Assembly: GCA_964420125.1 (NCBI GenBank)
Contig: CAYQQQ010000019.1
Coordinates: 1-64,000, forward strand
Length of the DNA: 64,000 nucleotides
Reading direction: 5' to 3'
Source of the DNA: an uncultured Microthrixaceae bacterium
GTDB taxonomy: Bacteria; Actinomycetota; Acidimicrobiia; Acidimicrobiales; Microtrichaceae
Each line of letters begins with the position of its first letter. The first letter of the stretch is position 1. Position numbers and translations under genes: made by a program. The notes under the pieces are model-generated. The model did not search any database. It was not told the DNA's origin and saw nothing but the letters and a program-made list of their open reading frames with translations. Below are positions 19,983-51,425 of this stretch, piece after piece.

Positions 19983-20050
19983 GGGGGACTCCGGTGTCGG
20001 GACGCTGGGGTCGTGTCACAGGTCGGTGCCACCCTACGGCCTCGGCGAGC

Positions 20051-20869
20051 TCAGTCGGCGCATCCGCCGTGGTCGTGGTCGTCGTCGCCGTGGGAGCCGT
20101 GGCCGTGGTCGTCGATCACCTGCGGACGACCGTGGTCGTCCACCACGTGTGAGCCGAACGCGGTTCGCAGGTTGGCGGCCACGAGCACCTCGGACGGTGA
20201 ACCGTGGGCGACGACCCGACCGGCGAGGAGCACAACCACGTCGCACTGACGCGCCTCGTCGAGGTCGTGGGTGGACAGCACGACGAGGCGGCCGTCGGCA
20301 CGCTCTCCGGCGACGACCTCCATGATGCGTCGCTGGGAGGGGAGGTCGAGTCCGGTGACAGGCTCGTCGAGCAGCAGCACGTGTGCCTGCGATGCCACGG
20401 CGGAGGCGATGAGCACCCTCTGGCGCTGTCCGCCGGAGAGCTCGCTGAAGGTGTGGTCGCGCAGCTCTGCCACCTGGAGGCGGGTGGCTGCGGCCTGCAC
20501 GGCGGCGCGGTCCTCGGAGCGGAACCGACCCAGCAGGCCGAGGTGTCCGTAGCGGGACATGTCCAGGACCTCGCCGGCGGTGAGGGGCATGAAGCGGTGC
20601 TGGTGCTGGTGCTGAGCGACGTAGGCGAAGCGGATCCCTTCGCCGTGGAGGACGGCACCCGAGGCTGGGGACAGCAATCCGGCGATCAGGCGCAGCAGCG
20701 TGGTCTTGCCCGAGCCGTTGGCACCCACGAGGGCGATCGAGGTGCCGCCGTGGAGGTCGAGCGTGGTGGCGGACAGGGCAGTCCGGGAGCCGAAGGCCGC
20801 CGAGGCGTCGCGCAGCTCGACGAAGGGCTCGGAGCGGAAGCGCTCAGGGTCGAGGGGACGTCCCACCAC
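20051..20869 (-). CDS. znuC: Metal (Zn/Mn) ABC transporter ATP-binding protein
   Basis: Walker A GANGSGKTT, LSGGQRQR signature, LLDEP, STHD; C-terminal His/Asp-rich tail (HGHGSHGDDDHDHG); start at GTG 20869 (alternative GTG 20866). Confidence 0.8.
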   Translation of the reverse strand: MVGRPLDPERFRSEPFVELRDASAAFGSRTALSATTLDLHGGTSIALVGANGSGKTTLLRLIAGLLSPASGAVLHGEGIRFAYVAQHQHQHRFMPLTAGEVLDMSRYGHLGLLGRFRSEDRAAVQAAATRLQVAELRDHTFSELSGGQRQRVLIASAVASQAHVLLLDEPVTGLDLPSQRRIMEVVAGERADGRLVVLSTHDLDEARQCDVVVLLAGRVVAHGSPSEVLVAANLRTAFGSHVVDDHGRPQVIDDHGHGSHGDDDHDHGGCAD

Positions 20870-20909
20870 GTGATGGTCCCACAGGTGTGAGCTCCGTCCC
20901 GGCTTGTTC

Positions 20910-20926
20910 TTGAGAATCACTCTCAA
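20910..20926. promoter_or_regulatory. 17-bp inverted repeat TTGAGA-ATCAC-TCTCAA in znuC/znuA divergent promoter (candidate Zur/metalloregulator operator)
   Basis: Only AT-rich patch in the region; 6-bp arms perfectly complementary; about 41 bp from znuC start and about 35 bp from znuA start. Confidence 0.4.
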
Positions 20927-20960
20927 TATCCTATGGTACGACCACGAGGACGAGGCGATC

Positions 20961-21992
20961 ATGGGCACAACGATGGAGCGAGCAGGCACAGTGCGCAGGG
21001 CCCTGCGGGCGGCCACCGCCGTGGCGGGGATGGGCTGCCTGCTGGCGGCATGCGGGGGGGATGGAGGTGAAGGCGACGGCTCCGCCACGCCGCAGATCGT
21101 GGCCACCAACAGCATCTGGGCCGATGTGGCGACCAACGTGGCGTGCGACGGCGCTGCCGAGGTGATCTCGCTGCTGCCACCCGGCACCGACCCCCATGCC
21201 TACGAGCCCTCGATGGCCGACCGGACCCGTCTGCAGGACGCATCGCTGGTGGTGGTGAACGGGCTCGGCCTCGAAGCCGGCCTGCAGGACACGCTCGAGT
21301 CGGTCGAGGCCGACGGCGTGCCCGTGTTCGTCGCCGGTGACCACGTGGAGGTCCGTCCCCTCACCGAGGGCCCGGCGGACGGCGCCGAGGGAGGTTCCTC
21401 CGACGCGGACGAGCACGAGGGCGATGAGGACGCCTCGCACCAACACGACGAGGGGGATCCCCACCTGTGGCAGGATCCGACCCGCACCTCGGAGGTGGTG
21501 ACCGCCCTCGGCGAGTCCCTGGTGGAGGAGGCCGGCCTGGACGCCGACACGGTGCAGCGCTGCGTGGAGCGCTACACATCTGAACTGGCGACCCTCGACA
21601 CGGATGTCGACGCCATGGTGGCGGCGGTGCCGGCCGAGCGGCGGGTGCTCGTGACCAACCACGACGCCCTCGGCTACTTCGCCGACCGCTACGGCTTCGA
21701 GGTCCTGGGCACCGTCATCCCCGGCCCGGGGACCCTGGCGGAGACCAACCCCGCAGAGATCGAGGCGCTGGCCCAGGCCATCGAGGAGGCTGGCGTGCCC
21801 GCCGTGTTCGCAGAGGAGCAGCACTCGGACGCGGATGCCCGCGCCCTGGCGGATCGGGTCGGCGACGTGGAGGTGGTCACCCTCTACACCGACGCGCTCG
21901 GCGAGGGGGGTTCGGGCGCCGAGACCTACGTGGCGATGATCCGCCGCAACGGTGAGCTCATCACCGGCGCGCTCGGCGGAGAGGGGTCGTGA
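20961..21992 (+). CDS. znuA: Metal ABC transporter substrate-binding lipoprotein (ZnuA/TroA family)
   Basis: LLAACGG lipobox; His/Asp/Glu-rich loop SSDADEHEGDEDASHQHDEGDPH typical of Zn-specific ZnuA; TroA-like fold. Confidence 0.85.
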   Translation: MGTTMERAGTVRRALRAATAVAGMGCLLAACGGDGGEGDGSATPQIVATNSIWADVATNVACDGAAEVISLLPPGTDPHAYEPSMADRTRLQDASLVVVNGLGLEAGLQDTLESVEADGVPVFVAGDHVEVRPLTEGPADGAEGGSSDADEHEGDEDASHQHDEGDPHLWQDPTRTSEVVTALGESLVEEAGLDADTVQRCVERYTSELATLDTDVDAMVAAVPAERRVLVTNHDALGYFADRYGFEVLGTVIPGPGTLAETNPAEIEALAQAIEEAGVPAVFAEEQHSDADARALADRVGDVEVVTLYTDALGEGGSGAETYVAMIRRNGELITGALGGEGS

Positions 21993-22052
21993 GGGGGCAT
22001 CGTCCCGCCGTGGTGGCACCTCGACCTGTCGCGCCTGCGCGACGATGACGGC

Positions 22053-22919
22053 GTGGAGGTGCTGACCGATCCCTGGGGCTGGTGGATCGAGCCGTTCACG
22101 GCCAACCCCTTCATGCGCAACGCGCTGTGGGCGGGACTGCTGGTGGCGCTGTGCACCTCCATCGTCGGCACCTGGGTGGTGTTGCGAGGGATGGCGTTCC
22201 TGGGCGACGCGCTCGCCCACGGCGTCCTCCCGGGCATCGCCATCGCCTTCGTGCTCGGCGTGAACACCACCGTGGGCGCGTTCGCCGCCGCAGTGGTGAT
22301 GGTGCTGGGGATCAACTTCGTTCGCTCCCGCTCGTCGCTGCCGGAGGACACCTCGATCGGCGTGCTCTTCGTCGGGTTCCTGGCGCTGGCGGTGGTGGTG
22401 ATGTCCGCCAGCTCCGGGGCCTACAGCGGGGACCTCAACCGCTTCCTGTTCGGGTCGGTGACGGGGGTGGACCTGGGAGACCTGGGACGCCAGGCCGTGG
22501 CCTCCGCGCTCGCCGTCGCCGGTGTGGCGCTGTTCTACCGGGCCTTCCTGGTCATGACCTTCGACGAGACCCAGGCGCAGCTGCTGGGCCTGCGACCGAG
22601 GTTGGCGCAGATCGTGCTGCTCGTGCTGCTGGCGCTCACGATCGTCGCCTCCTTCGAGGTCGTGGGCAACCTGCTGGTGTTCGCCTTCCTCGTCGCCCCG
22701 CCGGCGGCGGCCACGATGCTCGTGCGGCGGGTCCCCTGGATCATGGTCACGGCACTCGCGCTGGGCTCGGTGTCGGTGGTGCTCGGCCTCCTCGTCAGCT
22801 ACCACCGCTCCACCGCCGCGGGCGCCACGATGGCGCTGGCGTCCGTCCTGCTCTTCGTGGTCGTGCTGGCGCTGAGCAGCGTCCGACGCAACCTTCGAGC
22901 CGACTCGAAGGCGGGGTAG
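22053..22919 (+). CDS. znuB: Metal ABC transporter permease (ZnuB family)
   Basis: About 8 TM helices, conserved DALAHGVLPGIA motif of ABC-3 permeases. Confidence 0.85.
   Translation: MEVLTDPWGWWIEPFTANPFMRNALWAGLLVALCTSIVGTWVVLRGMAFLGDALAHGVLPGIAIAFVLGVNTTVGAFAAAVVMVLGINFVRSRSSLPEDTSIGVLFVGFLALAVVVMSASSGAYSGDLNRFLFGSVTGVDLGDLGRQAVASALAVAGVALFYRAFLVMTFDETQAQLLGLRPRLAQIVLLVLLALTIVASFEVVGNLLVFAFLVAPPAAATMLVRRVPWIMVTALALGSVSVVLGLLVSYHRSTAAGATMALASVLLFVVVLALSSVRRNLRADSKAG
22892..22911. promoter_or_regulatory. CueR/MerR-type dyad CCTTCGAG-ccga-CTCGAAGG upstream of merR-copA-copZ
   Basis: Perfect 8-bp inverted repeat (CCTTC...GAAGG arms as in E. coli CueR boxes) lying within the last codons of znuB; TAGCCT -10-like hexamer overlaps znuB stop, 7 nt before the MerR ATG. 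Confidence 0.45.
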
Positions 22920-22929
22920 CCTGGGCCTG

Positions 22930-23328
22930 ATGCGCATCGGAGCTGTCGCCGAGGCCGCCGGGACCACGCCCAGCACCATCCGCTACTACGAGTCCGTCGG
23001 GCTGGTGGCGCCGCCGCCGCGCAGCGCCGCCGGCTATCGGGACTACCCGGACGAGGTGCTGGGGCGGCTGCAGTTCATCCGTGACGCACAGGCCAGCGGA
23101 CTGACTCTCGCAGAGATCCAGTCGGTGCTCGAGCTGAAGGACGCCGGCCGCCGCAGCTGCGAGCACACCGCTGCACTCCTCGAGCGACACCTGGCAGAGC
23201 TGGACGAGCAGATCGAGCGTCTGCAGCTGGCCCGGGTGGAGCTCGCCCGGCTCGCCGGCAGGGCGAGGGCCCTCGACCCGTCGGAGTGCACCGATCCGCA
23301 CCGGTGCCAGGTCATCGAGGGGCCTTGA
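22930..23328 (+). CDS. MerR-family metalloregulator, CueR-like
   Basis: N-terminal [28 protein letters not shown]; C-terminal Cys pair ECTDPHRC (C-x7-C as in Cu(I)-sensing CueR). Confidence 0.85.
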
Positions 23329-23341
23329 CCTTCGAGTCGAC

Positions 23342-25711
23342 TTGAAGGTCTACGATGAGGGCGTGGAGGCCAGGACCACACCTGCTGCGGGCCGGAGCGT
23401 TCCGGGTGAGGACCCCGGGCTCCTGACGGTGCGCACCGACCTGCCCGTCGAGGGCATGACGTGCGCCGCCTGCGCCAACCGGATCCAGCGGCAGCTCGGC
23501 CGTGTCGAGGGGGTGCGGTCGGCCAACGTGAACTTCGCCAGCGGCTCCGCCACCGTGGAGCACGCCCCCGAGGTGGCGGACGAGGTGCTGCGGGCGACCA
23601 TCGAGTCCCTGGGCTACTCGGTGCCGGACGTGGTGGATCACGAGGCCGCCGAGGCCGATCGCGAGCGCGACCTGTGGCGGAGGTTCGTGGTGGCCTGCGC
23701 GCTGAGCCTGCCGGTGGTGGCGGTCTCGATGGTGATGAGCCTGCAGTTCGACGGCTGGGAGTGGGTGGCGTTCGCCCTGAGCACCCCGGTCGTGTGGTGG
23801 TCGGGATGGGGCTTCCACGCAGCGGCGTGGACGAACCTGCGACACGGCGCCACCACCATGGACACGCTGGTGTCCATGGGCACCCTCTCCGCGTGGACGT
23901 GGTCCACCGTCGTGCTGGTGGGGGGAGTCCTCTCCTCGGGATCGGACGCCGTGGACATGGCCGGGATGGACATGGGTGGCGGGGGAGCAGGGCACGTCTA
24001 CTTCGAGAGCGCGGCGGTCATCGTCACGCTGATCCTGCTGGGCAAGTGGTTCGAGGTGCGCTCCACCCGCCGCTCGGGCGACGCCCTGCGAGCCATGGCA
24101 GAGCTCTCCGCCCGCACGGCGCGTCTGCCGGACGGCTCCGAGGTCCCCGTCGACGACCTGGTCGTCGGCGACCGCTTCCTGGTGCGACCGGGGGAGAAGG
24201 TCGCCACCGATGGCGTGGTGGTCGACGGCAACGGGGCGGTCGACGCTTCCATGGTCACCGGTGAGCCGCTGCCCGTGGAGGTCGGCCCCGGCGACCAGGT
24301 CATCGGCGCGACCGTCAACACGAGCGGATCGCTGGTGGTCGAGGCCACCAGGGTGGGCGCCGGCACGACGCTGGCCCAGATCACCCGCATGGTCGCCGAG
24401 GCCCAGGGGTCCCGGGCCGAGGTCCAGCGCCTCGCCGATCGAGTCTCGGCGGTGTTCGTCCCCACGGTGATCGTCGTGGCCGTGCTCACCCTGGTGGGAT
24501 GGTCGGTGAGCGGTCACCCGAGCGACGAGGCCTTCACCTCGGCGGTGGCGGTGCTCATCATCGCCTGTCCGTGCGCCCTCGGCCTGGCGACCCCGCTGGG
24601 GATCATGGTCGGCACCGGCCGGGGGGCCCAGCTCGGCGTGATCATCCGTGGCGGGGAGGTGCTCGAGCAGACCCGCACGGTGGACACCATCGTGCTCGAC
24701 AAGACGGGCACCGTCACCGAAGGTCGCATGGAGGTGGTGGAGGTGGTCGCCGCCGACGGCACGACGCTGACCGGTGGCTCCGCGTCGGCGGTGGAGCTGC
24801 TGGGACTGGCCGGCGCGGTGGAGGACCGCTCCGAGCACCCGATCGCCCGCGCCGTGGCCGAGGCGGCTCGTCGGATCGACCCCGTGGGGCAGCTGGCGGA
24901 GGTGGAGGGCTTCGAGAACCGCGCGGGGCTCGGGGTGCGCGCGTGCGTCGCGGGCACCACGGTGGTGGTCGGCAGGAGCAGCCTGTTCGAGGAAGTTCCC
25001 GATGCCCTCCACTCGGTGGCCGAGGGGCATCAGGCCGCGGGTCGCACCGTGGTGTTCCTCGGGTGCTCGCCGGAGGAGCAGCGGGTGGCGGGCCTCGTGG
25101 TGGTGGCAGATCGCATCAAGGTCGGCGCCGGCGAGGCGATGGCGGACTTCGTCGAGCTCGGGCTGCGCTCGGTGCTGCTGACCGGGGACCAGCGGCGGGC
25201 AGCGGAAGCCGTCGCCGAGGAGGTGGGCATCACGGAGGTGATCGCCGAGGTCCTTCCGGAGGAGAAGCTGGCGGTGGTCCAGGGCCTCCAAGGTGACGGT
25301 CACGTGGTCGCCATGGTCGGCGACGGGATCAACGATGCGCCGGCGCTGGCGGCAGCCGACCTGGGCATCGCCATCGGCACGGGCACCGACGTGGCGCGAG
25401 AGGCATCCGACATCACCGTGGTCACCGGCGATCTGCGGGCCGTGGCGGACGCGATCGCCCTCGCCCGGCGCACGCTGTCGGTGATCAAGGGCAACCTGTT
25501 CTGGGCGTTCGCCTACAACGTGGCGGCCCTGCCGCTGGCCGCCCTCGGGATCCTGAACCCGATGATCGCCGCAGCCGCCATGGGGTTGTCGTCGGTGTTC
25601 GTGGTGACCAACAGCCTGCGCCTGCGCCGGTTCACCGGCTTCCGGACGCTCAACCCCGGGGCGCGGCGCGACGACGCGCGTCCCGTCCCCCCACCCAAGG
25701 AGGAACCATGA
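23342..25711 (+). CDS. copA: Copper-translocating P1B-type ATPase
   Basis: N-terminal HMA domain [14 protein letters not shown] transmembrane motif, DKTGT phosphorylation site, GDGINDAP; TTG start at 23342 (alternative GTG starts in frame). Confidence 0.9.
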
Positions 25712-27390: not shown

Positions 27391-27744
27391 TCAGGCGTCG
27401 AGGTACTTGCGGAACTGCTGGCCGACCACCATGGACTGCCCCATCCGCGCCACCCACTGATGGGCGGCTGCGGTGAACACGACAGGATCGTGGCCCATCT
27501 CTGCAGCGATCTGCGCCATGTCCTCCTCGGTGGTGACCCCACGCGCCTGGGCGGCCTTGGCGACTGCGGCGTACTCGGGCAGGCCGATGCCGTCGATCGG
27601 CTGGAGCAGGGGATCGTCGGCGTCCAGGGGCTGCGTGGAGGGGCCGCCGAGGAAGGAGGGGTCCACGGGCATCCCCTTGACGCCGATCTGGCCCTCGCCG
27701 GCGGCTTGCGTGCGCATCTTCTTGAAGAACCCCATCGTGGGCAC
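27391..27744 (-). CDS. Hypothetical protein (117 aa)
   Basis: GGAGGTG RBS 6 nt upstream; strong GC3 bias; MPTMGFFKKMRTQAAGEGQIG... Confidence 0.5.
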   Translation of the reverse strand: MPTMGFFKKMRTQAAGEGQIGVKGMPVDPSFLGGPSTQPLDADDPLLQPIDGIGLPEYAAVAKAAQARGVTTEEDMAQIAAEMGHDPVVFTAAAHQWVARMGQSMVVGQQFRKYLDA

Positions 27745-28724: not shown

Positions 28725-31406
28725 CTACCGCCGTTGCGGGCGAGGGCGGAAGGGGTTGCCCAGGAGCAGCAGGCTGCCGAGCAGGACGGCGCAGCCACCG
28801 ATCAGCAGCAGCACCGAGGTGCTGCCACCCGTGAACGCGAGGCCGCTGTCCGCAGAGGGGGCTTCGGTCGTCGTGGTGGTCGAGGAGCTCTGCGTGCCGG
28901 CGACCGTCGCAGGGGGTGCGCTGCTCGAGGAGCTCGAGGTCCCTGCCGGATCCGTGGTGGTGGTCGTGGACGTGCTGGAGGGGTTCGTGGCGCTCGGCGC
29001 CGCCACGGTCGTCGTCGTGGTGGACTCGGCCGTCGGGACACTCGTCGCCGGCTCGATGGCGGTCGACGTGGTGGCGGTCGACGTGGTGGTGGTGGTGGTC
29101 GTTGCCTCGGTCGTCGTCGTGGTCGTTGCCTCGGTCGTGGTGGTGGTGGGTTCGGTCGTGGTGGTCGTCGTGGTGGGTTCGGTGGTCGTGGTGGTGGTGG
29201 ACCCTGTCGGGCAGTCGGGTACCGCGCCCACGAGGTCCAGGTGGGCCATCGCCGAGGAGCTGTCGTGTCCGTCGGGGTCGGTGGCTTCCACCACCGCCAG
29301 GTTCACGATGTGCGAGGGGACGGGGCAGTCGAGCTCCACCGCCGTGCGCAGGCAGAGCTGTGGATCGGGTCCGCTGAAGGACACCTCCACCGTGGGCACA
29401 CCGGCGTCCCAGGAGCCGGTCCCGGTGGCGTTGACGGTGGCGACGAAGGTGTAGGCGGCCGTCGGCGACAGCTTCGAGAGGTCGATCTCGTCGCCGGCGG
29501 TGCTCACGTCCTCGAAGCCGGGCACCGGGTCGCCGTCCTGGAGGACGGTGAGGTGGAAGTCGTCGAGCTCGGATGCGTCGACGCCCCGGAGGCGGGCCCG
29601 CTGCCAGGCGAGCACCGGTTCTGAGGCGCAGTAGTACTGCAGCGGAACGGGGACCTCGATGGTGGAGGCCACCCGGAGGCACGGCGTGGATCCCGTCACG
29701 GGATCCAGCGTGAACAGCCAGCCCTGGTCGCCGAGGCCCCAGATGCAGCCCGCATCGTCGCGTTCGAAGCCGTACAGGGAGAGTCCTCCGGAGTGGACCT
29801 GCGGGAAGGAGCTGAGACCACCGGCGCCGAAGTCGGTGCACGGGCCGTCGGTGGCAGGGTCGTAGCAGAGGGCCCAGGAGTTGACCTTGTTGGCGTTCTG
29901 GCCCCGGGGCGAACCGACCGAGACGGGCAGGAGCAGGGTGCCCGTCGCGGTGCGCACCTCCTCAGCGGAGATGTAGACCGGTTGCTCGTAGCTGAACCCG
30001 GGGGAGACCTTCGTGGGAGCTGCAGCGATCATGGCCGCCAGGCCGGGCGGGATCAGCCCAGGAGCCAGCCCACCCGTGCTGTCGAAGCAGTGCACGGACC
30101 GGCTCTTCAGCTGCGGCACCGAGGCTGGTCCGCTGTCGCTGGAGATGATGAACGCCGGGTCCACCACCGCGAGGTTGATGCACGGGCTGCCGGGAGCGTC
30201 GGGGTTCTCCATGAGCGCGGAGACGAAGCGCAGCAGCTCCGACCCGTCGGTCCCCGGTACGGCGGGCACCGTCCACCCGGCACACGGGGTCCCGTCCGCC
30301 TCGACGCAGAAGATCCGGGTGCCGACGGCATCGAAGGGCAGCAGCGTCTCGGTCGAGCCGTAGTCCACGGTGAAGTAGGACCGGGTGCCGGCGGTCTGGG
30401 TGTGGACCCAGGCGGCTCGCCCCTCCGAGACCACTGCGTAGTCCCATGCCGGGAGTCCGACGGAGTTGAGGTCGTGCACGCCGCAGGAGCTCATCGACGC
30501 AAGGTCGAAGCAGAGGGACTGCACCGCGGAGGTTCCCGCCGTCGAGCGCGCCGCCAGCATCAGCAGGTGGTCGCCGACGCGGGAGACGCCCCCGACGGGC
30601 GCCCGGCTGATCTTGGCGGGGCCGGCCCCCGCCCTGACGGTGCCGAGGGAGTACCACCGGGATCCACATGGGGCGTCGCTGGGGAGGTCGAAGCAGAAGA
30701 GGCCCGCCTCGTCGTTGGTGGTGGCCGGCCGGTCGACCGTCGCCGGTATCCACAGGCGCTGCTGCTCGTCCACCAGCGCCCGCAGCGATCCGGGGGTGTA
30801 CAGATCCCCCGCCGCATACACCGAGAGGTCCTTGGGGTAGCCGGGACATCTCGACCCGTCCGACCGCAGGCTGCAGGTGAGATCCGCCTCCCCGATGCCG
30901 CTGTGGTGGTACACGTTGAACACTCGGTCCGCGGTGATGATCGGTATCCACCCATCGCCACCTGTCTGGGCGGTGGTGGCGTTGCGCGACGGCTCGGGCA
31001 GCTCGCTGGCCCCGCCCCGGCCGCCGGGCGGGGTGAGCGGGGAGGTGGCCCGCACGGCGGCGGTGGACGCGCCGCCCGCCCCGTCCCAGGGCCCGTCGGT
31101 GCCGGCGTCGGAGTACTCGACCTCCCAGCCCGGCGGTCCCTCCACGCTCCCGGACACGAGTTGCTGGCCGGCGCCGAGGGTGTCGGTCACCCGGAGGGTG
31201 GCCGGCAGGTCGCCGTCGTTGCCGAGGTCGACCACCCAGGAGACGGAGTCGCCGTCGGCCACCTCGGTCGGGGAGCCTGTGCGGTCGGCTGCGCCCTGCT
31301 TGGACGCGCTGGGCGCCGGCTGCGCGGCGCTGAGGGAGGACAGCGCCACCCCCAGTGCAACGGCCAGCCAGATCGCCCCCGCTCTGTGCCATCGCCCCGG
31401 CACCAT
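28725..31406 (-). CDS. Sortase-anchored cell-surface protein (LAFTG sorting signal, Thr-rich stalk)
   Basis: N-terminal signal peptide; large Cys-paired extracellular region; about 120-aa Thr/Ser-rich linker; C-terminal LAFTGG + hydrophobic segment + RPRPQRR tail (LAxTG class E sortase substrate). Confidence 0.8.
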   Translation of the reverse strand: MVPGRWHRAGAIWLAVALGVALSSLSAAQPAPSASKQGAADRTGSPTEVADGDSVSWVVDLGNDGDLPATLRVTDTLGAGQQLVSGSVEGPPGWEVEYSDAGTDGPWDGAGGASTAAVRATSPLTPPGGRGGASELPEPSRNATTAQTGGDGWIPIITADRVFNVYHHSGIGEADLTCSLRSDGSRCPGYPKDLSVYAAGDLYTPGSLRALVDEQQRLWIPATVDRPATTNDEAGLFCFDLPSDAPCGSRWYSLGTVRAGAGPAKISRAPVGGVSRVGDHLLMLAARSTAGTSAVQSLCFDLASMSSCGVHDLNSVGLPAWDYAVVSEGRAAWVHTQTAGTRSYFTVDYGSTETLLPFDAVGTRIFCVEADGTPCAGWTVPAVPGTDGSELLRFVSALMENPDAPGSPCINLAVVDPAFIISSDSGPASVPQLKSRSVHCFDSTGGLAPGLIPPGLAAMIAAAPTKVSPGFSYEQPVYISAEEVRTATGTLLLPVSVGSPRGQNANKVNSWALCYDPATDGPCTDFGAGGLSSFPQVHSGGLSLYGFERDDAGCIWGLGDQGWLFTLDPVTGSTPCLRVASTIEVPVPLQYYCASEPVLAWQRARLRGVDASELDDFHLTVLQDGDPVPGFEDVSTAGDEIDLSKLSPTAAYTFVATVNATGTGSWDAGVPTVEVSFSGPDPQLCLRTAVELDCPVPSHIVNLAVVEATDPDGHDSSSAMAHLDLVGAVPDCPTGSTTTTTTEPTTTTTTTEPTTTTTEATTTTTTEATTTTTTTSTATTSTAIEPATSVPTAESTTTTTVAAPSATNPSSTSTTTTTDPAGTSSSSSSAPPATVAGTQSSSTTTTTEAPSADSGLAFTGGSTSVLLLIGGCAVLLGSLLLLGNPFRPRPQRR
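29079..29204 (-). repeat. Degenerate tandem codon repeat encoding TTTTTTEP/TTTTTEA units
   Basis: Repeated ggtcgttgcctcggtcgt / ggtggtggtgggttcggt units on the + strand within the surface protein gene. Confidence 0.5.
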
Positions 31407-31464: not shown

Positions 31465-31869
31465 TCAGGCACCCTCGAGCGACGTCGGCGGAGGGTCGTC
31501 CGCGCCGGCCGCGTGCACGTCGCCGGAGGACGCCTCGGACATCCTCTGATGGACCCAGGCCACGCTGCCGGGATCGCCCTGCGATTCCGACCACCCGGAG
31601 AACGCACCCTCGACGCGGTCCAGGCCGTGGATGACGCCCAGCACCTCGACGGTCACCTCGTCGGCAGGGAGGTCGGGCACGAGCGTGTCGCCCAGGGGGT
31701 CCATGACCAACGGCTCGCCGGCCTCCCGCATCAGGTAGACCTCGCCGGTGTCCTCCACCCAGTTGAGCTCCCAGCGCACTCCACCGGGATCGGTCCAGTC
31801 GCTGCCGAAGGAGTACTCCTTGGATGCTCGGCGGGCCGGGTTGGCGTCGTAGAAGTGCTCGATGTCCAC
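31465..31869 (-). CDS. Hypothetical protein (134 aa, acidic)
   Basis: Protein-like composition, GC3 bias; MDIEHFYDANPARRASKEYSFGSDWTDPGG... Confidence 0.5.
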   Translation of the reverse strand: MDIEHFYDANPARRASKEYSFGSDWTDPGGVRWELNWVEDTGEVYLMREAGEPLVMDPLGDTLVPDLPADEVTVEVLGVIHGLDRVEGAFSGWSESQGDPGSVAWVHQRMSEASSGDVHAAGADDPPPTSLEGA

Positions 31870-48320: not shown

Positions 48321-51300
48321 TCAGCGCAGCCGCAGGGTGACCAGCTCGAAGGGGACCAGCATCAGGGAGAGCCCTCCGTGCTCGACGGCGATCGCCGCCG
48401 AGCCCTCCTCGGGCTCCTCCAGGAGGTTGCATCGTCGAGCCTCCCGTCGGTGACCGTCCACCTCGATCGTCGTGTCCACGTGGCTGCCGGTGGCCTCCCA
48501 CAGGCGCACCACCAGATCTCCGGAGCCGTCGTCGGCGAGCTTCACCGCGGCGACCTGCACGCGCGGGTCCCCGACGCGCACCAGCGGTGCCGGCGGATCG
48601 CCGGCACCGCAGCCGGGGACGACGAGCAGAGGGGTGTTCAGCGCCTCGGCCTCTGCCAGCACGTCGTGCAGCCCGGATCCGTGCGGCAGCAGGGAGATCG
48701 TCACCTGGTGGAGACCGTGGTCCGCTTCGGGATCGGGGAACCTCGGCGCCCGCAGGAGGCTCACCCGCACCCGGGTGGATCCGGGTGGGGTGTCGGGCCC
48801 GGGATGCAGGCTGTGGCCGTAGCGTCCGTCGTTGAGCACGGCCACGCCGGCGTCGCCTTCGGAGAGGTCGACGTAGCGGTGGGCGCAGACCTCGAACTTG
48901 GCGTCGTCCCAGGAGGTGTTCGTGTGGGTGGGGCGCCGCTGCAGGCCGAACTGGATCTCGCACGCCGCCGTCTCGGCGTGCACGGCGAGCGGGAGGTCCA
49001 GCGCCAGGTAGCGCTCGGACTCCCGCCACTCGACCGACACCCGGACGTCGACCCGGGGGCTTCCCGCCCGCAGCACGACGTCGCGGGTGAGGATGCTGCC
49101 ACGGCCGAACTGCCACGCCGTGCGAACCCCGCCCACCAGCGGGCCGGTGTCCACCAGTCCGATGGTGTCGGCGAGCGGCATGGGCGCAGCCAGGCGCCCC
49201 GTCCACTGCTCGAGGTCCCAGGCGTCGAACTCCACCGGGTGGTCGGCGGCCAGCACCAGCTGGGCTCCTGCGCACCCTTGCGGGATGAGCTCCCGGTTCC
49301 GCACGCAGTCCCGCAGCGACACCATCTCTCCACGGTGGTCGAAGTGGATCTCGACCAGGCCGTTGGAGAGGTGGCCCATGGAGGCCGTGACCGGCTCGGG
49401 CACCTCCAGCGGCTCGAGTCGGGCCACGCCCAGGCCCGGCACCCGCACTCGCATCGCGACCTCCGAGCTGGCGAGCATCTGGGTGCCAACCTGGACGGAG
49501 CCTCCGGACGGCAGCCCGGCGGCCTCGAGGAGGTCGGGATCGACCGCGATGATCTCGTCGCGGTCCTGCGTGGCGGCGTTGGCCACCAGCAGGCCGTCGC
49601 CCAGACCGCCCACGGCGGACATGGCGAGGTCGTCGGCCTCCGTGAGGACTCGCCGGAGGTCGGCTTGTGCGTCCTCGTAGACCCAACCGATGGAGGAGCC
49701 GGGCAGCACGTCGTGGAACTGATGGAGCAGCAGGGTCTTCCACAGCTCGTCGAGCTCGGCAGCGTGGGTGTCGTCCTCCGCCGTCGCCAACCAGAGCTCG
49801 GCAGCCCGCAGCGCGCCTTCGCATCGGCGGTTGGCGACCTTGGTGCGGGCCTGGGAGGTGAGCGTGCCGCGGTGGGTCTCGAAGTAGAGCTCGCCACGCC
49901 ACACGGGCACGGGGGAGGTGGCCGCCTCCGCCTCGACGTGCTCGAAGAACTCCGAGGGGGACTCGATCACGACCCGGGGCATCTCCGCCAGGTCACCGAG
50001 GCGGTCGACGCGATCGAGCATCTCCCTGGTCGGCCCTCCTCCGCCGTTGCCGTAGCCGAAGGGCATGAGGGAGTGGTCCGACCAGTAGTGGTCGCGGAAG
50101 CTCCTCACCGCGTGCGCCAGCTCGTTGGGGGCGATCTCGGCGTTGTAGGTGTCGACCGGGGGGAAGTGCGCCATCACCCGCGACCCGTCGATGCCTTCCC
50201 ACCAGAAGCTGTGGTGGGGCAGCTGGTTCTGCTTGTTCCAGCTCAGCTTCTGGGTGACGAACCGCCGGCAGCCGGCTCCGAGGTAGATCTGGGGGAGGGA
50301 GCCCGGATAGCCGAACACGTCGGGGATCCACACCTCCTCGCAGCGCCGACCGAAGCGCTGCTCGAAGAACCGCTGGCCGTGGACGAGCTGGCGAACGAGC
50401 GACTCGCCGGAGGGCAGGTTCATGTCCGCCTCCACCCACATGCCGCCGACCGGGACCCACTGTCCGTCGGCGACGGCTCGCCGGACCCGCTCGAAGAGCT
50501 CGGGGTGGTCGGCTTCGATCCACGAGTACTGCACCGCCTGTGAGCAGGCGAAGCGGTAGTCGGGACGCTCGGACATGAGGTCCACGGCGTTGGCGAACGT
50601 GCGGGCGGCCTTGCGGCGGGTCTCCCGGAGCGGCCAGAGCCAGGCCGTGTCGAGGTGGGCATGGCCGATGGCGCTGATCCGATGGGTGCCGGGAGCCGAA
50701 CCGAGCGCGAGTCCGGGCGCCAGCTCGGCGCGGGCTGCAGCGGCGGTGGCGCCCACGTGGTCCAGGTCCAGCCGGTCGTAGGCGCGCTGGAAGAGGTGCT
50801 GGAGGCGCTTGCGGCGAGGGTGCTCGACGGGGAGCGTGCGCATCACGCCGTCGAGGGCCCGGATGTCGAGCACCAGGTCGTGCACCTCGTCGTCGAGCAC
50901 CACCAGGTAGGCGCCGCCGAACACGTACTGGGGGGTGTCACCGGCGGTGGAGCGCGAGCCCATCGGGCTCGGAGAGAAGCCGGCGGTGAAGTCAGGGTTG
51001 GCCGCAGCCTCGACATCGGCCCGGATGCGGCCCTCGCGGGTGACGAGATCGAGGGAGACGCCCCGCCGGCGCGGGTGCAGTCCCGCCACCACCACGCCGT
51101 CCACCCAGAGCGTCCCCTCGGCGGAGAAGCCGGGCATCGCGCCGTAGCCGAGCTCCACGAGCAGCTCGGCACGGCCCGGGGGCAGCTCCTCGGGGAGCTC
51201 GGCGTCGATCCGGAACCAGGTGGTGCCCCATGGAGGGCCCCACGGCGTGCCTGACGCGATCGGTTCGTGGACCGCTGCTGCCGCCTCGGTCAGGCTCACG

Positions 51301-51425
51301 GGCTCGCCGGGCGCATGCCATGCGGTCACCGGGAGCTCCATCCGCAGACGGGTCTCTGCTGGGAGGATCCGCTCGTTCAGCTCCCGGATGATCCGGTTCT
51401 CGAGGATGGCGCGGTTGTCGTGCAC
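48321..51425 (-). CDS. Alpha-mannosidase, glycoside hydrolase family 38
   Basis: GH38 N-terminal catalytic signature AIGHAHLDTAWLWP, 1034 aa, no signal peptide. Confidence 0.85.
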   Translation of the reverse strand: MHDNRAILENRIIRELNERILPAETRLRMELPVTAWHAPGEPVSLTEAAAAVHEPIASGTPWGPPWGTTWFRIDAELPEELPPGRAELLVELGYGAMPGFSAEGTLWVDGVVVAGLHPRRRGVSLDLVTREGRIRADVEAAANPDFTAGFSPSPMGSRSTAGDTPQYVFGGAYLVVLDDEVHDLVLDIRALDGVMRTLPVEHPRRKRLQHLFQRAYDRLDLDHVGATAAAARAELAPGLALGSAPGTHRISAIGHAHLDTAWLWPLRETRRKAARTFANAVDLMSERPDYRFACSQAVQYSWIEADHPELFERVRRAVADGQWVPVGGMWVEADMNLPSGESLVRQLVHGQRFFEQRFGRRCEEVWIPDVFGYPGSLPQIYLGAGCRRFVTQKLSWNKQNQLPHHSFWWEGIDGSRVMAHFPPVDTYNAEIAPNELAHAVRSFRDHYWSDHSLMPFGYGNGGGGPTREMLDRVDRLGDLAEMPRVVIESPSEFFEHVEAEAATSPVPVWRGELYFETHRGTLTSQARTKVANRRCEGALRAAELWLATAEDDTHAAELDELWKTLLLHQFHDVLPGSSIGWVYEDAQADLRRVLTEADDLAMSAVGGLGDGLLVANAATQDRDEIIAVDPDLLEAAGLPSGGSVQVGTQMLASSEVAMRVRVPGLGVARLEPLEVPEPVTASMGHLSNGLVEIHFDHRGEMVSLRDCVRNRELIPQGCAGAQLVLAADHPVEFDAWDLEQWTGRLAAPMPLADTIGLVDTGPLVGGVRTAWQFGRGSILTRDVVLRAGSPRVDVRVSVEWRESERYLALDLPLAVHAETAACEIQFGLQRRPTHTNTSWDDAKFEVCAHRYVDLSEGDAGVAVLNDGRYGHSLHPGPDTPPGSTRVRVSLLRAPRFPDPEADHGLHQVTISLLPHGSGLHDVLAEAEALNTPLLVVPGCGAGDPPAPLVRVGDPRVQVAAVKLADDGSGDLVVRLWEATGSHVDTTIEVDGHRREARRCNLLEEPEEGSAAIAVEHGGLSLMLVPFELVTLRLR

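Follow-up and report, generated by a model that had tools for sequence, protein, structure and literature searches.

Sortase-anchored surface proteins are the contact that monoderm bacteria make with their surroundings, and most of what is known about them comes from Firmicutes pathogens and from a few proteins of Streptomyces, Corynebacterium and Bifidobacterium. SrtE1 and class E sortases in general recognise LAXTG, and cleave LPETG too; SrtE substrates with LAXTG are the long chaplins ChpA-C of Streptomyces coelicolor (PMC5148588). A layout of head, stalk and wall anchor has been described for the sortase-anchored fibrillar adhesins of Actinobacteria (PMC8286594; also PMC9210967), Periscope proteins are built from tandemly repeated domains that can fold and are highly identical to one another (PMC9704523), and Thr/Pro-rich linkers in actinobacteria are heavily O-mannosylated (PMC12757957). 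The 893-residue protein analysed here is of this familiar overall type, and its head is uncharacterised.

The gene lies in a 64-kb window (the whole stretch of DNA that was analysed, 64,000 nucleotides). As read from its sequence, the protein has the layout of a Sec signal peptide followed by an ectodomain of ~700 residues, a Thr-rich stalk and a C-terminal sorting signal. The features are as follows, the signal peptide, membrane-spanning segment and charged tail being direct readings of the translation:

28725..31406, minus strand: whole coding sequence, 893 residues plus stop codon, ATG start, from the ORF list
31323..31406, minus strand: predicted Sec-type signal peptide, residues 1-28, MVPGRWHRAG-AIWLAVALGVALSSL-SAA/QP
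30987..31310, minus strand: predicted N-terminal Ig-like beta-sandwich, residues ~33-140, with a DUF11-like pattern (all-beta in the model, pLDDT 91-97)
29631..30971, minus strand: predicted seven-bladed beta-propeller, residues ~146-592, with seven conserved Cys pairs
30903..30962, minus strand: family signature GGDGW-x8-VFNVYHH, residues 149-168, from alignments and conservation over 128 modules
29208..29630, minus strand: two predicted C-terminal Ig-like beta-sandwich domains, residues ~593-733, with Cys 593, 685/694 and 732 (AF2 model)
28842..29207, minus strand: low-complexity stalk rich in Thr, Ser, Pro and Ala, residues 734-855, in degenerate (E/A)(P/S/A)TTTTT(T) units
29057..29200, no strand assigned: degenerate tandem DNA repeats in the N-terminal part of the stalk (Tandem Repeats Finder)
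28827..28841, minus strand: LAFTG sortase recognition pentapeptide, residues 856-860, conserved in relatives
28758..28823, minus strand: predicted hydrophobic transmembrane stretch within the sorting signal, residues 862-883
28728..28757, minus strand: positively charged tail NPFRPRPQRR, residues 884-893

The open reading frame is a real gene, intact and under purifying selection, since its GC3 is 0.91 and its dN/dS against two orthologues is 0.18-0.20. Both the ORF list and the identity of the product to the NCBI-derived protein P0001 agree with the original prediction, which had placed an 893-residue protein at 28725-31406. The source DNA is that of a 72% GC actinobacterium, and a scan of the locus for promoters and terminators returned none, as expected for such a genome. 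The predicted signal peptide consists of a basic n-region, a hydrophobic core and SAA before Q; it is retained in the orthologues in our alignment, and residues 8-21 are helical in the AF2 model. Neither a lipobox Cys nor a twin-Arg motif can be read in it, and cleavage would fall between SAA and QP.

The structure prediction that had been proposed for the ectodomain gave a confident model. Built by AF2 from a 55-sequence alignment, this model (m5fd554a819bd) has a pLDDT of 87.6 and a pTM of 0.86; a 5-sequence alignment had given a pLDDT of 51 only. The model shows a head made of an Ig-like domain, a 7-bladed beta-propeller and two further Ig-like domains, with seven four-stranded antiparallel blades arranged round a central axis in the predicted propeller, and with the strands of the two C-terminal domains (residues 600-725) mostly at pLDDT >90. 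The top Foldseek match is the integrin alpha ectodomain, in which both the propeller and the Ig-like legs align. The TM-score of this integrin-type match is ~0.3 and the identity is <=12%, a similarity at the level of the fold only, and no specific family of solved structures stands out as similar to the modelled propeller.

Sequence searches agree with the earlier view of the N-terminal region as an unknown domain, in that no characterised family was matched. With the whole protein as query, no match reached E <= 1 among Pfam, NCBIfam and PDB sequences and none reached E <= 10 in Pfam, while a profile of the 55 sequences reached a Kelch propeller in the PDB at E = 0.14 only. Pfam and NCBIfam models, those of recognised adhesive domains included, match the head neither in the 893-residue protein nor in the 55 relatives. 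For the N-terminal Ig-like domain (residues ~33-140), in which P91 is 99% conserved over 128 modules, there was no significant HMM match. FG-GAP and VCBS models likewise do not match the head, and Ca-binding DxDxDGxxD loops are absent from it. A BamB-type assignment is disfavoured by the lack of any PQQ_2 (PF13360) match in the protein at E <= 10; on the relative P0167 the same model gives E = 0.03 and 14.4 bits (cutoff 27.6).

On sequence comparison, the head is a member of a large and widespread family that has no name and no Pfam or NCBIfam model. An exhaustive HMMER scan revealed this family, with 822 cluster representatives that are mostly from Actinomycetota; a word-indexed homology search, even with a profile, had found only 4 full-length relatives. 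Of 128 family members, 121 have the head module at the N-terminus, and in relatives this module is followed by stalk domains (SdrD_B, DUF11, DUF7617, CshA_repeat or SpaA) and then by a wall anchor, with either a sortase signal or an OmpA-like anchor being present. DUF7617 (PF24593) was considered as a Pfam model of the head and rejected: its position is that of a DUF11-like stalk domain downstream of the head, and it has no match in the 893-residue protein at E <= 10.

The cysteine-rich character noted earlier for the N-terminal ~700 residues stands, with 18 Cys in the ectodomain (178, 187, 238, 247, 299, 308, 367, 375, 409, 440, 514, 523, 554, 576, 593, 685, 694 and 732) and one more within the membrane helix. 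Those of the propeller fall into the conserved pairs 178/187, 238/247, 299/308, 367/375, 409/440, 514/523 and 554/576; the alignments show a C-x-D-x(4-6)-C hairpin motif in the blades, and each blade would hold one disulfide. Across the family, all 18 Cys and a polar signature, GDG...HH / D516 / Y545, are 93-100% conserved, and the signature itself (G150, D151, G152, H167, H168, D516 and Y545) reaches 95-98% over 128 modules. The earlier statement that the region has no obvious catalytic motif overlooks this signature.

Between PDCP (ending at 733) and LAFTG (starting at 856), the stalk measures 122 residues, of which 48% are Thr and 16% Ser, close to the linker of about 120 Thr/Ser-rich residues encoded by degenerate tandem repeats that the original prediction had described. 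Tandem Repeats Finder reports periods of 3, 12, 15, 21, 24 and 27 at 29057-29200, with 71-95% matches, and the longest perfect tracts in the stalk DNA are 2 x 15 nt and 5 x ACC. To call this DNA slippage-prone was thus too strong: the repeats in the window are degenerate and weakly slippage-prone, the longest perfect tandem tract being 30 nt. The expected variation in length is seen among relatives, with stalks of 79, 122, 140, 149 and 159 residues; these lengths come from metagenomes assembled from short reads, in which repeats may have been collapsed. Genes with stalks of 79, 122 and 159 residues are 95-98% DNA-identical over the aligned part upstream of the stalk, and for those with stalks of 140 and 149 residues the gene DNA is 80-84% identical. 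Stalk lengths differ by whole 7-residue (21-nt) units, and recombination therefore fits better than slippage. A metagenome scan for further stalk alleles yielded no confirmed relative. By analogy with other actinobacterial linkers, the stalk is probably O-mannosylated.

What, then, might such a protein do? The explanation that we favour, and consider moderately likely as a whole, is that of a wall-anchored surface protein in which a disulfide-stapled binding head is borne on a Thr-rich, length-variable, O-mannosylated stalk. The mature protein would comprise two parts, a rigid head and an extended stalk of ~120 residues that would carry the head through the wall and past it, and stalk length would shift between strains via gain or loss of the 7-residue units. 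The head would most likely serve to bind a ligand outside the cell, as an adhesin, a lectin or a receptor-like module, and we infer that it binds rather than catalyses. Counting against a binding module is the conserved Asp/His-His/Asp/Tyr signature, with which a catalytic or metal site would be compatible as well. It is conceivable, if somewhat unlikely, that GDG...HH / Asp / Tyr constitutes a new catalytic or metal/ligand-binding centre, in which case the family would consist of unrecognised class E-sortase-linked surface enzymes or receptors and not of passive adhesins. More specifically, the head might be an enzyme anchored to the wall, for instance a lyase, a hydrolase or another catalyst with a propeller fold, whose substrate would be a polymer outside the cell. 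The same residues would then form a catalytic or metal-binding site, with anchoring and stalk unchanged; this we judge unlikely. A surface receptor that captures a nutrient or cofactor and passes its cargo to a membrane transporter would recall the YncE and BtuG propellers, surface proteins that bind vitamin B12. This is very unlikely: the structural match is generic (8-9% identity), no transporter is conserved as a neighbour, the relative at 49% identity and the distant homologue P0007 being in unrelated contexts, and a long stalk would hold the head far from the membrane, ill-suited to hand-off.

Wall anchoring of the binding head, as favoured above, depends on the C-terminus, which reads LAFTGG, then GSTSVLLLIGGCAVLLGSLLLLG, then NPFRPRPQRR, with a hydrophobic stretch of 22-23 residues. 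In a six-frame search of the window this is the single occurrence of an L[PA]xTG motif with a following hydrophobic segment at a C-terminus. The motif is LALTG in P0002, P0005 and P0006, LAFTG in P0003 and LPNTG in P0004, and relatives down to 49% identity retain the pentapeptide together with the helix and the basic tail. Among 154 family representatives, 46 have sortase signals, with Ala at position 3 in 23 and Pro in 18. The class E-type (LAxTG) sorting signal of the original prediction is therefore present in all three parts, unique in the window and conserved in relatives.

A sortase to act on this signal is to be sought elsewhere in the genome: as had been stated, the window holds no sortase gene, whether judged by the TLxTC catalytic signature in any plausible ORF or by Pfam scans of 30 window ORFs. 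Outside the window, a class E sortase gene directly adjoins a family member in 6 of 27 related loci (L007, L011, L013, L017, L019 and L022), the full-length sortase of L007 scoring 237.8 bits on NF033747 class_E_sortase (cutoff 160), and Acidimicrobiales MAGs encode class E sortases directly next to paralogues of the 893-residue gene. Sortase-mediated attachment of the protein to the cell wall is probable, and in the source organism it would be wall-anchored. Should the sorting signal instead be unused, the matching sortase being absent and the protein held in the cytoplasmic membrane by its C-terminal helix, both the lack of a sortase within the 64 kb and the failure of the NCBIfam and Pfam LPXTG-anchor models to score the tail would be accommodated. 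We nevertheless hold this to be highly improbable, given the conservation of the whole tripartite signal, the sortases beside paralogues, and the fact that housekeeping sortases are mostly unlinked to their substrate genes.

The genes flanking the locus are, by Pfam, a 4HBT_3 thioesterase, an MMPL protein and a YibE_F protein, just as had been named, and gene order is the same in four related contigs. With these contigs 80-99% identical, recent common descent accounts for the shared order. The relative at 49% identity has as its neighbours LeuA and a 102-residue gene unrelated to the 134-residue gene upstream of ours, with neither small gene matching any family; P0007 and the sortase-linked paralogues sit in other contexts again. 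The flanks of the proposed cell-envelope locus, and their order in close relatives, hold, but the inference drawn from them is weak, the neighbourhood being different at 49% identity. The full order is two-component system, MMPL, 134-residue gene, 893-residue gene, thioesterase, 114-residue gene and YibE/F. That the protein is a working part of an MmpL-centred lipid-export operon of the cell envelope is extremely improbable: the genes all run in one direction, are separated by short gaps with no terminator predicted, and keep their order in the four contigs, but the linkage to MMPL and thioesterase is gone in the 49% relative and absent from the other contexts, so a conserved operon was rejected as the functional unit.

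A stalked, wall-anchored binding protein of this kind would be a well-defined sortase-anchored example from the poorly studied Acidimicrobiia, here a Microtrichaceae-like organism, and it brings to light a large family of head domains for which a link to class E sortases recurs and whose stalks and anchors are interchangeable. With this family defined, hundreds of actinobacterial surface proteins now called 'hypothetical' would be better annotated, and the ligand or activity of the head could account for aspects of cohesion, of the formation of flocs or filaments, or of substrate capture among environmental actinobacteria.

How does the protein compare with the systems described to date? Like the chaplins ChpA-C, it starts with a signal peptide and ends in an LAxTG motif with hydrophobic helix and basic tail, and the link of SrtE substrates to class E sortases is mirrored in the genomic neighbourhoods of family members. 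Unlike the chaplins, with their small hydrophobic domains, it bears a predicted Ig-like/propeller/Ig-like head of ~700 residues; its host is Acidimicrobiia/Microtrichaceae-like, and its anchoring is predicted. The order of N-terminal head, stalk and C-terminal sortase anchor, with the anchor opposite the head, is that of the fibrillar adhesins, and relatives use the stalk domains SdrD_B, DUF11, CshA_repeat and SpaA as these adhesins do. In contrast to fibrillar adhesins, the head lies outside the catalogued adhesive domains, having no Pfam model, and the stalk of the 893-residue protein is low-complexity and Thr-rich, not a series of repeated folded domains. As in Periscope proteins, stalk length differs between close relatives by repeat number (in short-read assemblies), but the units are low-complexity stretches of 7 residues and their DNA repeats in the window are degenerate. 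A long, unstructured Thr/Pro/Ser-rich segment and Sec export are shared with the O-mannosylated Cellulomonas fimi protein Celf_3184 (PMC12757957), whereas glycosylation of the present stalk is putative, with no Pmt (GT39) gene among the window ORFs scanned.

A 7-bladed propeller is joined to Ig-like domains in the ectodomain of integrin alpha chains and in some bacterial or archaeal surface proteins, examples being integrin alpha IIb (8gcd_A), Lp49 (3bws) and PorZ (5m11). Unlike integrin alpha, the head modelled here has no FG-GAP or Ca-binding DxDxDG loops and has one conserved Cys pair per blade, and the resemblance is one of architecture, an analogy. Closer at the level of sequence are the DUF7617 proteins of Streptomyces, Kitasatospora and Micromonosporales, which carry the same head module at 29% identity over residues 36-698 of the window protein, likewise have LAxTG anchors, and in one case adjoin a class E sortase. 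In these proteins DUF7617 itself is a DUF11-like stalk domain of 128 residues C-terminal to the head; in the 893-residue protein, a Thr-rich stalk stands in its place.

The 893-aa reading frame at 28725..31406 (-) is present exactly as the original prediction had it, beginning with ATG and encoding a product identical to P0001, a protein predicted from an 86-kb NCBI assembly contig. Its GC content by codon position (0.63, 0.61 and 0.91 for positions 1, 2 and 3) and its dN/dS across the 733-aa ectodomain (0.18 and 0.20 in comparison with two full-length orthologues) identify it as a genuine coding gene; the long open reading frames overlapping it in other frames are the usual by-product of 72% GC DNA. 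The protein is built as follows:

Residues 1-28: Sec-type signal peptide with basic n-region, hydrophobic core and a junction between SAA and QP
Residues ~29-733: ectodomain with 18 cysteines
Residues 734-855: stalk of 122 aa, 48% Thr and 16% Ser
Residues 856-893: sorting signal, comprising LAFTG, a hydrophobic segment of 22-23 residues and NPFRPRPQRR

By inspection, the signal peptide has neither a lipobox Cys nor a twin-arginine motif.

The ectodomain preceding the stalk, hereafter the head, is part of a large, unmodelled actinobacterial family in which a predicted 7-bladed propeller, probably disulfide-stapled, is flanked by Ig-like domains and which is recurrently linked to class E sortases. 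The N-terminal region had been described as uncharacterised, and this is borne out by the absence of any match to the protein in Pfam, NCBIfam and PDB sequence searches, Pfam staying blank even at E <= 10. A word-indexed search gave full-length relatives at 85%, 80% and 49% identity, two fragments 98-99% identical and a single remote protein with an OmpA anchor. The 85% relative comes from a 'Microtrichaceae' MAG, which assigns the organism of the window to Acidimicrobiia. Far more members emerged when an ectodomain profile was run exhaustively with HMMER: 822 cluster representatives reach E <= 1e-3, of which 600 reach E <= 1e-10 and 182 reach E <= 1e-30. Nearly the whole 730-position profile is spanned by 128 of the 156 family sequences examined, and in 121 of these 128 the module is N-terminal. 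Members were found in Acidimicrobiales, Ilumatobacteraceae, Streptomyces, Kitasatospora, Kineosporia, Micromonosporales, Nanopelagicales and Bifidobacterium. The sole member seen outside Actinomycetota, P0023 (MDQ5886392.1; 780 aa, full-length), is assigned to a Patescibacteria (CPR) MAG, a placement that could stem from horizontal transfer or mis-binning.

Public names of members are either 'hypothetical protein' or taken from accessory domains, and a Pfam/NCBIfam census of 55 members detected nothing beyond accessory domains of stalks and anchors (SdrD_B, CarboxypepD_reg, DUF7507, DUF11, CshA_repeat, SpaA, OmpA and Gram_pos_anchor), the head being without a match. The Streptomyces/Kitasatospora branch is annotated 'DUF7617 domain-containing', and we considered whether DUF7617 might be the Pfam model of the head. 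This 128-aa DUF11-like domain lies C-terminal of the head in up to six copies and is thus another stalk domain. Together with the census, its position indicates that the head has no curated model.

Structure prediction and a fold search, as originally proposed, point to an Ig-like/7-bladed propeller/Ig-like head with only generic PDB matches. AlphaFold2 was not usable on a 5-sequence alignment (pLDDT 51); an alignment of 55 sequences yielded a confident prediction (mean pLDDT 87.6, pTM 0.86) with these elements:

N-terminus: signal-peptide helix
Residues ~33-140: Ig-like beta-sandwich
Residues ~146-592: large all-beta domain
Residues ~593-733: two more beta-sandwiches

Compared with the PDB by Foldseek, the model best matches integrin alpha ectodomains (over both the propeller and the Ig-like legs; E = 7e-8, TM ~0.3), PorZ, and GH43 and polysaccharide-lyase propellers; on this basis the core of the head is a predicted 7-bladed beta-propeller without a specific solved relative. 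Conservation was measured over 128 modules, at ~22-28% identity to the window protein. Each ectodomain cysteine measured is 83-100% conserved, most at >=93%, and P91, G150-D151-G152, H167-H168, D516, Y545, D550 and G572 are 88-99% conserved. Seven cysteine pairs lie in a C-x-D-x(4-6)-C hairpin context (178/187, 238/247, 299/308, 367/375, 409/440, 514/523 and 554/576), and from their spacing and the predicted hairpins we infer one disulfide per blade. The same reasoning points to a further disulfide in the C-terminal domains at 685/694, and probably to another there at 593/732.

The predicted LAFTG, helix and basic tail are likewise confirmed: a scan of all six reading frames found this tripartite C-terminus nowhere else in the window, and every relative retains the motif as LAFTG or LALTG, or as LPNTG at 49% identity. 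Recognisable sortase signals occur in 46 of 154 family representatives (Ala at position 3 in 23, Pro in 18), and another 15 of the 154 end in OmpA-like peptidoglycan-binding domains. Such fusions in Actinomycetota (P0007/L020, L014, L025, L027 and L030) would provide the same head with an alternative, non-covalent wall anchor. Members at six loci (L012, L016, L021, L024, L029 and L031) end in AIPQSG (or AIPLAG; AIPKSG in L031), a hydrophobic helix and RRRR, apparently a sorting-like motif that is neither LPXTG nor LAXTG; sortases are absent from the flanks examined at these loci. Twelve of the 154 (P0036, P0042, P0052, P0059, P0068, P0070, P0077, P0093, P0096, P0114, P0146 and P0148) have P(V/F)TG at the extreme C-terminus with no hydrophobic helix or basic tail beyond, which could be an unusual terminal motif or systematic gene-call truncation.

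In Actinobacteria of soil and freshwater, class E sortases recognise LAXTG; SrtE1 cuts LPETG as well as LAETG, preferring Ala two-fold (PMC5148588). At 6 of 27 member-encoding genome loci a sortase reading frame with the TLTTC active-site motif directly adjoins the family member, upstream and co-directional at L011, L013, L017, L019 and L022 and convergent at L007 (Streptomyces); all six substrates end in LANTG, LARTG or LPNTG. NCBIfam class E is by far the best match for the adjoining sortases tested, at 237.8 bits for the full-length L007 sortase (cut-off 160) and at 139 and 120 bits for two partial-length queries. Since four of these loci are evidently orthologous, the independent associations number about three, still well in excess of chance. 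The upstream sortases at L011:1876-3276(+), L013:8337-9794(+), L017:7377-9794(+) and L019:3-1157(+) have a long C-terminal extension with additional hydrophobic segments, and themselves terminate in HLDILLPTG, an LPxTG-like motif. As originally noted, the 64-kb window holds no sortase, by an active-site motif scan of its plausible reading frames and by Pfam scans of 30 of its reading frames.

The sortase is the only recurrent genomic partner of the family, so that the 'cell-envelope locus' proposed from the flanking genes is weakly grounded: the flanking thioesterase, MmpL and YibE/F genes are indeed there, but the neighbours differ at 49% identity. In the window the genes run response regulator, histidine kinase, MMPL, 134-aa gene, the surface protein, 4HBT_3 thioesterase, 117-aa gene, YibE/F and metal-homeostasis genes. 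This order is identical in four related contigs, those of the 80-99% identical relatives; the 49% relative is flanked by LeuA and an unrelated small gene, and the distant homologue P0007 lies among housekeeping genes. Other features of the window are:

31465-31869 (-) and 27391-27744 (-): small conserved reading frames of 134 aa and 117 aa around the surface protein and thioesterase genes, syntenic in all close relatives, matching no Pfam or NCBIfam family
~20000-25700: metal-homeostasis cluster just downstream of YibE/F (ZnuA/ABC-3/ABC ATPase, MerR, HMA-domain P-type ATPase, HMA chaperone), assigned by synteny with the related contigs L001/L002
1814-4180 (-), 18063-19676 (+) and 41300-42811 (+): two putative sulfatase-family genes, one by Pfam match and the other by a CxPSR-type motif and L001 synteny only, and a PhoX-like alkaline phosphatase with a PD40 repeat
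48321-51425 (-): alpha-mannosidase of 1034 aa in which all four GH38 domains are present, listed only in view of the possible O-mannosylation of the stalk

The sulfatase-family and phosphatase genes suggest scavenging of sulfated and phosphorylated organics. Outside the immediate neighbourhood the window is ordinary chromosome, with fumarase, a molybdopterin oxidoreductase, PFK, ABC and MFS transporters and a P450 in addition to the putative sulfatases, PhoX and GH38 mannosidase just listed.

In the stalk, degenerate (E/A)(P/S/A)TTTTT(T) units give way to a less regular T/S/A/P segment; in the DNA, Tandem Repeats Finder detects degenerate repeats over 29057-29200 (periods 3 to 27, 71-95% matches).

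Stalk lengths of the window protein and its relatives; percentages are DNA identities to the window
L006: 79 aa; 98% (aligned portion of the gene preceding the stalk)
Window: 122 aa; reference
L001: 140 aa; 84%
L002: 149 aa; 80%
L005: 159 aa; 96% (aligned portion of the gene preceding the stalk)

The predicted length variability therefore holds (79-159 aa), but 'slippage-prone' goes too far for the window copy, whose longest perfect tracts are 2 x 15 nt and 5 x ACC; in the relatives, perfect tandem repeats with units of 21, 24 or 42 nt extend over 63-84 nt. The polymorphism appears real, with the proviso that short-read assemblies can collapse repeats. Since the alignment shows whole 7-aa units gained and lost, length change is best explained by recombination between 21-nt units. 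GT39 Pmt heavily O-mannosylates Thr/Pro-rich linkers of secreted actinobacterial proteins (PMC12757957), and by analogy O-mannosylation of this stalk is plausible.

Most likely, the precursor would be secreted through Sec, its 18 ectodomain cysteines becoming oxidised. It would stay tethered to the membrane by its C-terminal helix and basic tail until LAFTG is cut between Thr and Gly by a class E sortase, which would join the protein to peptidoglycan precursors. The ~120-residue, probably glycosylated stalk would then act as an extended, protease-resistant spacer carrying the rigid Ig-like/propeller/Ig-like head out past the wall. That the same N-terminal head occurs in hundreds of proteins on interchangeable stalks and anchors, in a head/stalk/sortase-anchor layout described for actinobacterial fibrillar adhesins (PMC8286594), argues that it is the functional, outward-facing binding unit. 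The head might instead be a wall-displayed enzyme or metal-dependent receptor, as its nearly invariant Asp/His-His/Asp/Tyr signature would also allow; we consider this rather unlikely. The gene would gain in interest if the conserved polar site proved to be a new catalytic or ligand-binding centre.

The protein can be set against known systems. The likeness to integrin alpha is architectural only, the head having no FG-GAP or Ca-loop motifs. The protein does not show the repeats that define periscope proteins, and it differs from FA-like proteins in having neither a recognised adhesive domain nor, in the window copy, a folded-repeat stalk. In mechanism it would resemble both fibrillar adhesins and class E sortase substrates, and it carries the sorting signal of the latter. 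A sortase-anchored surface protein is thus of a general kind already known; what is new, modestly but truly, is the large unmodelled head family and its recurrent link to class E sortases.
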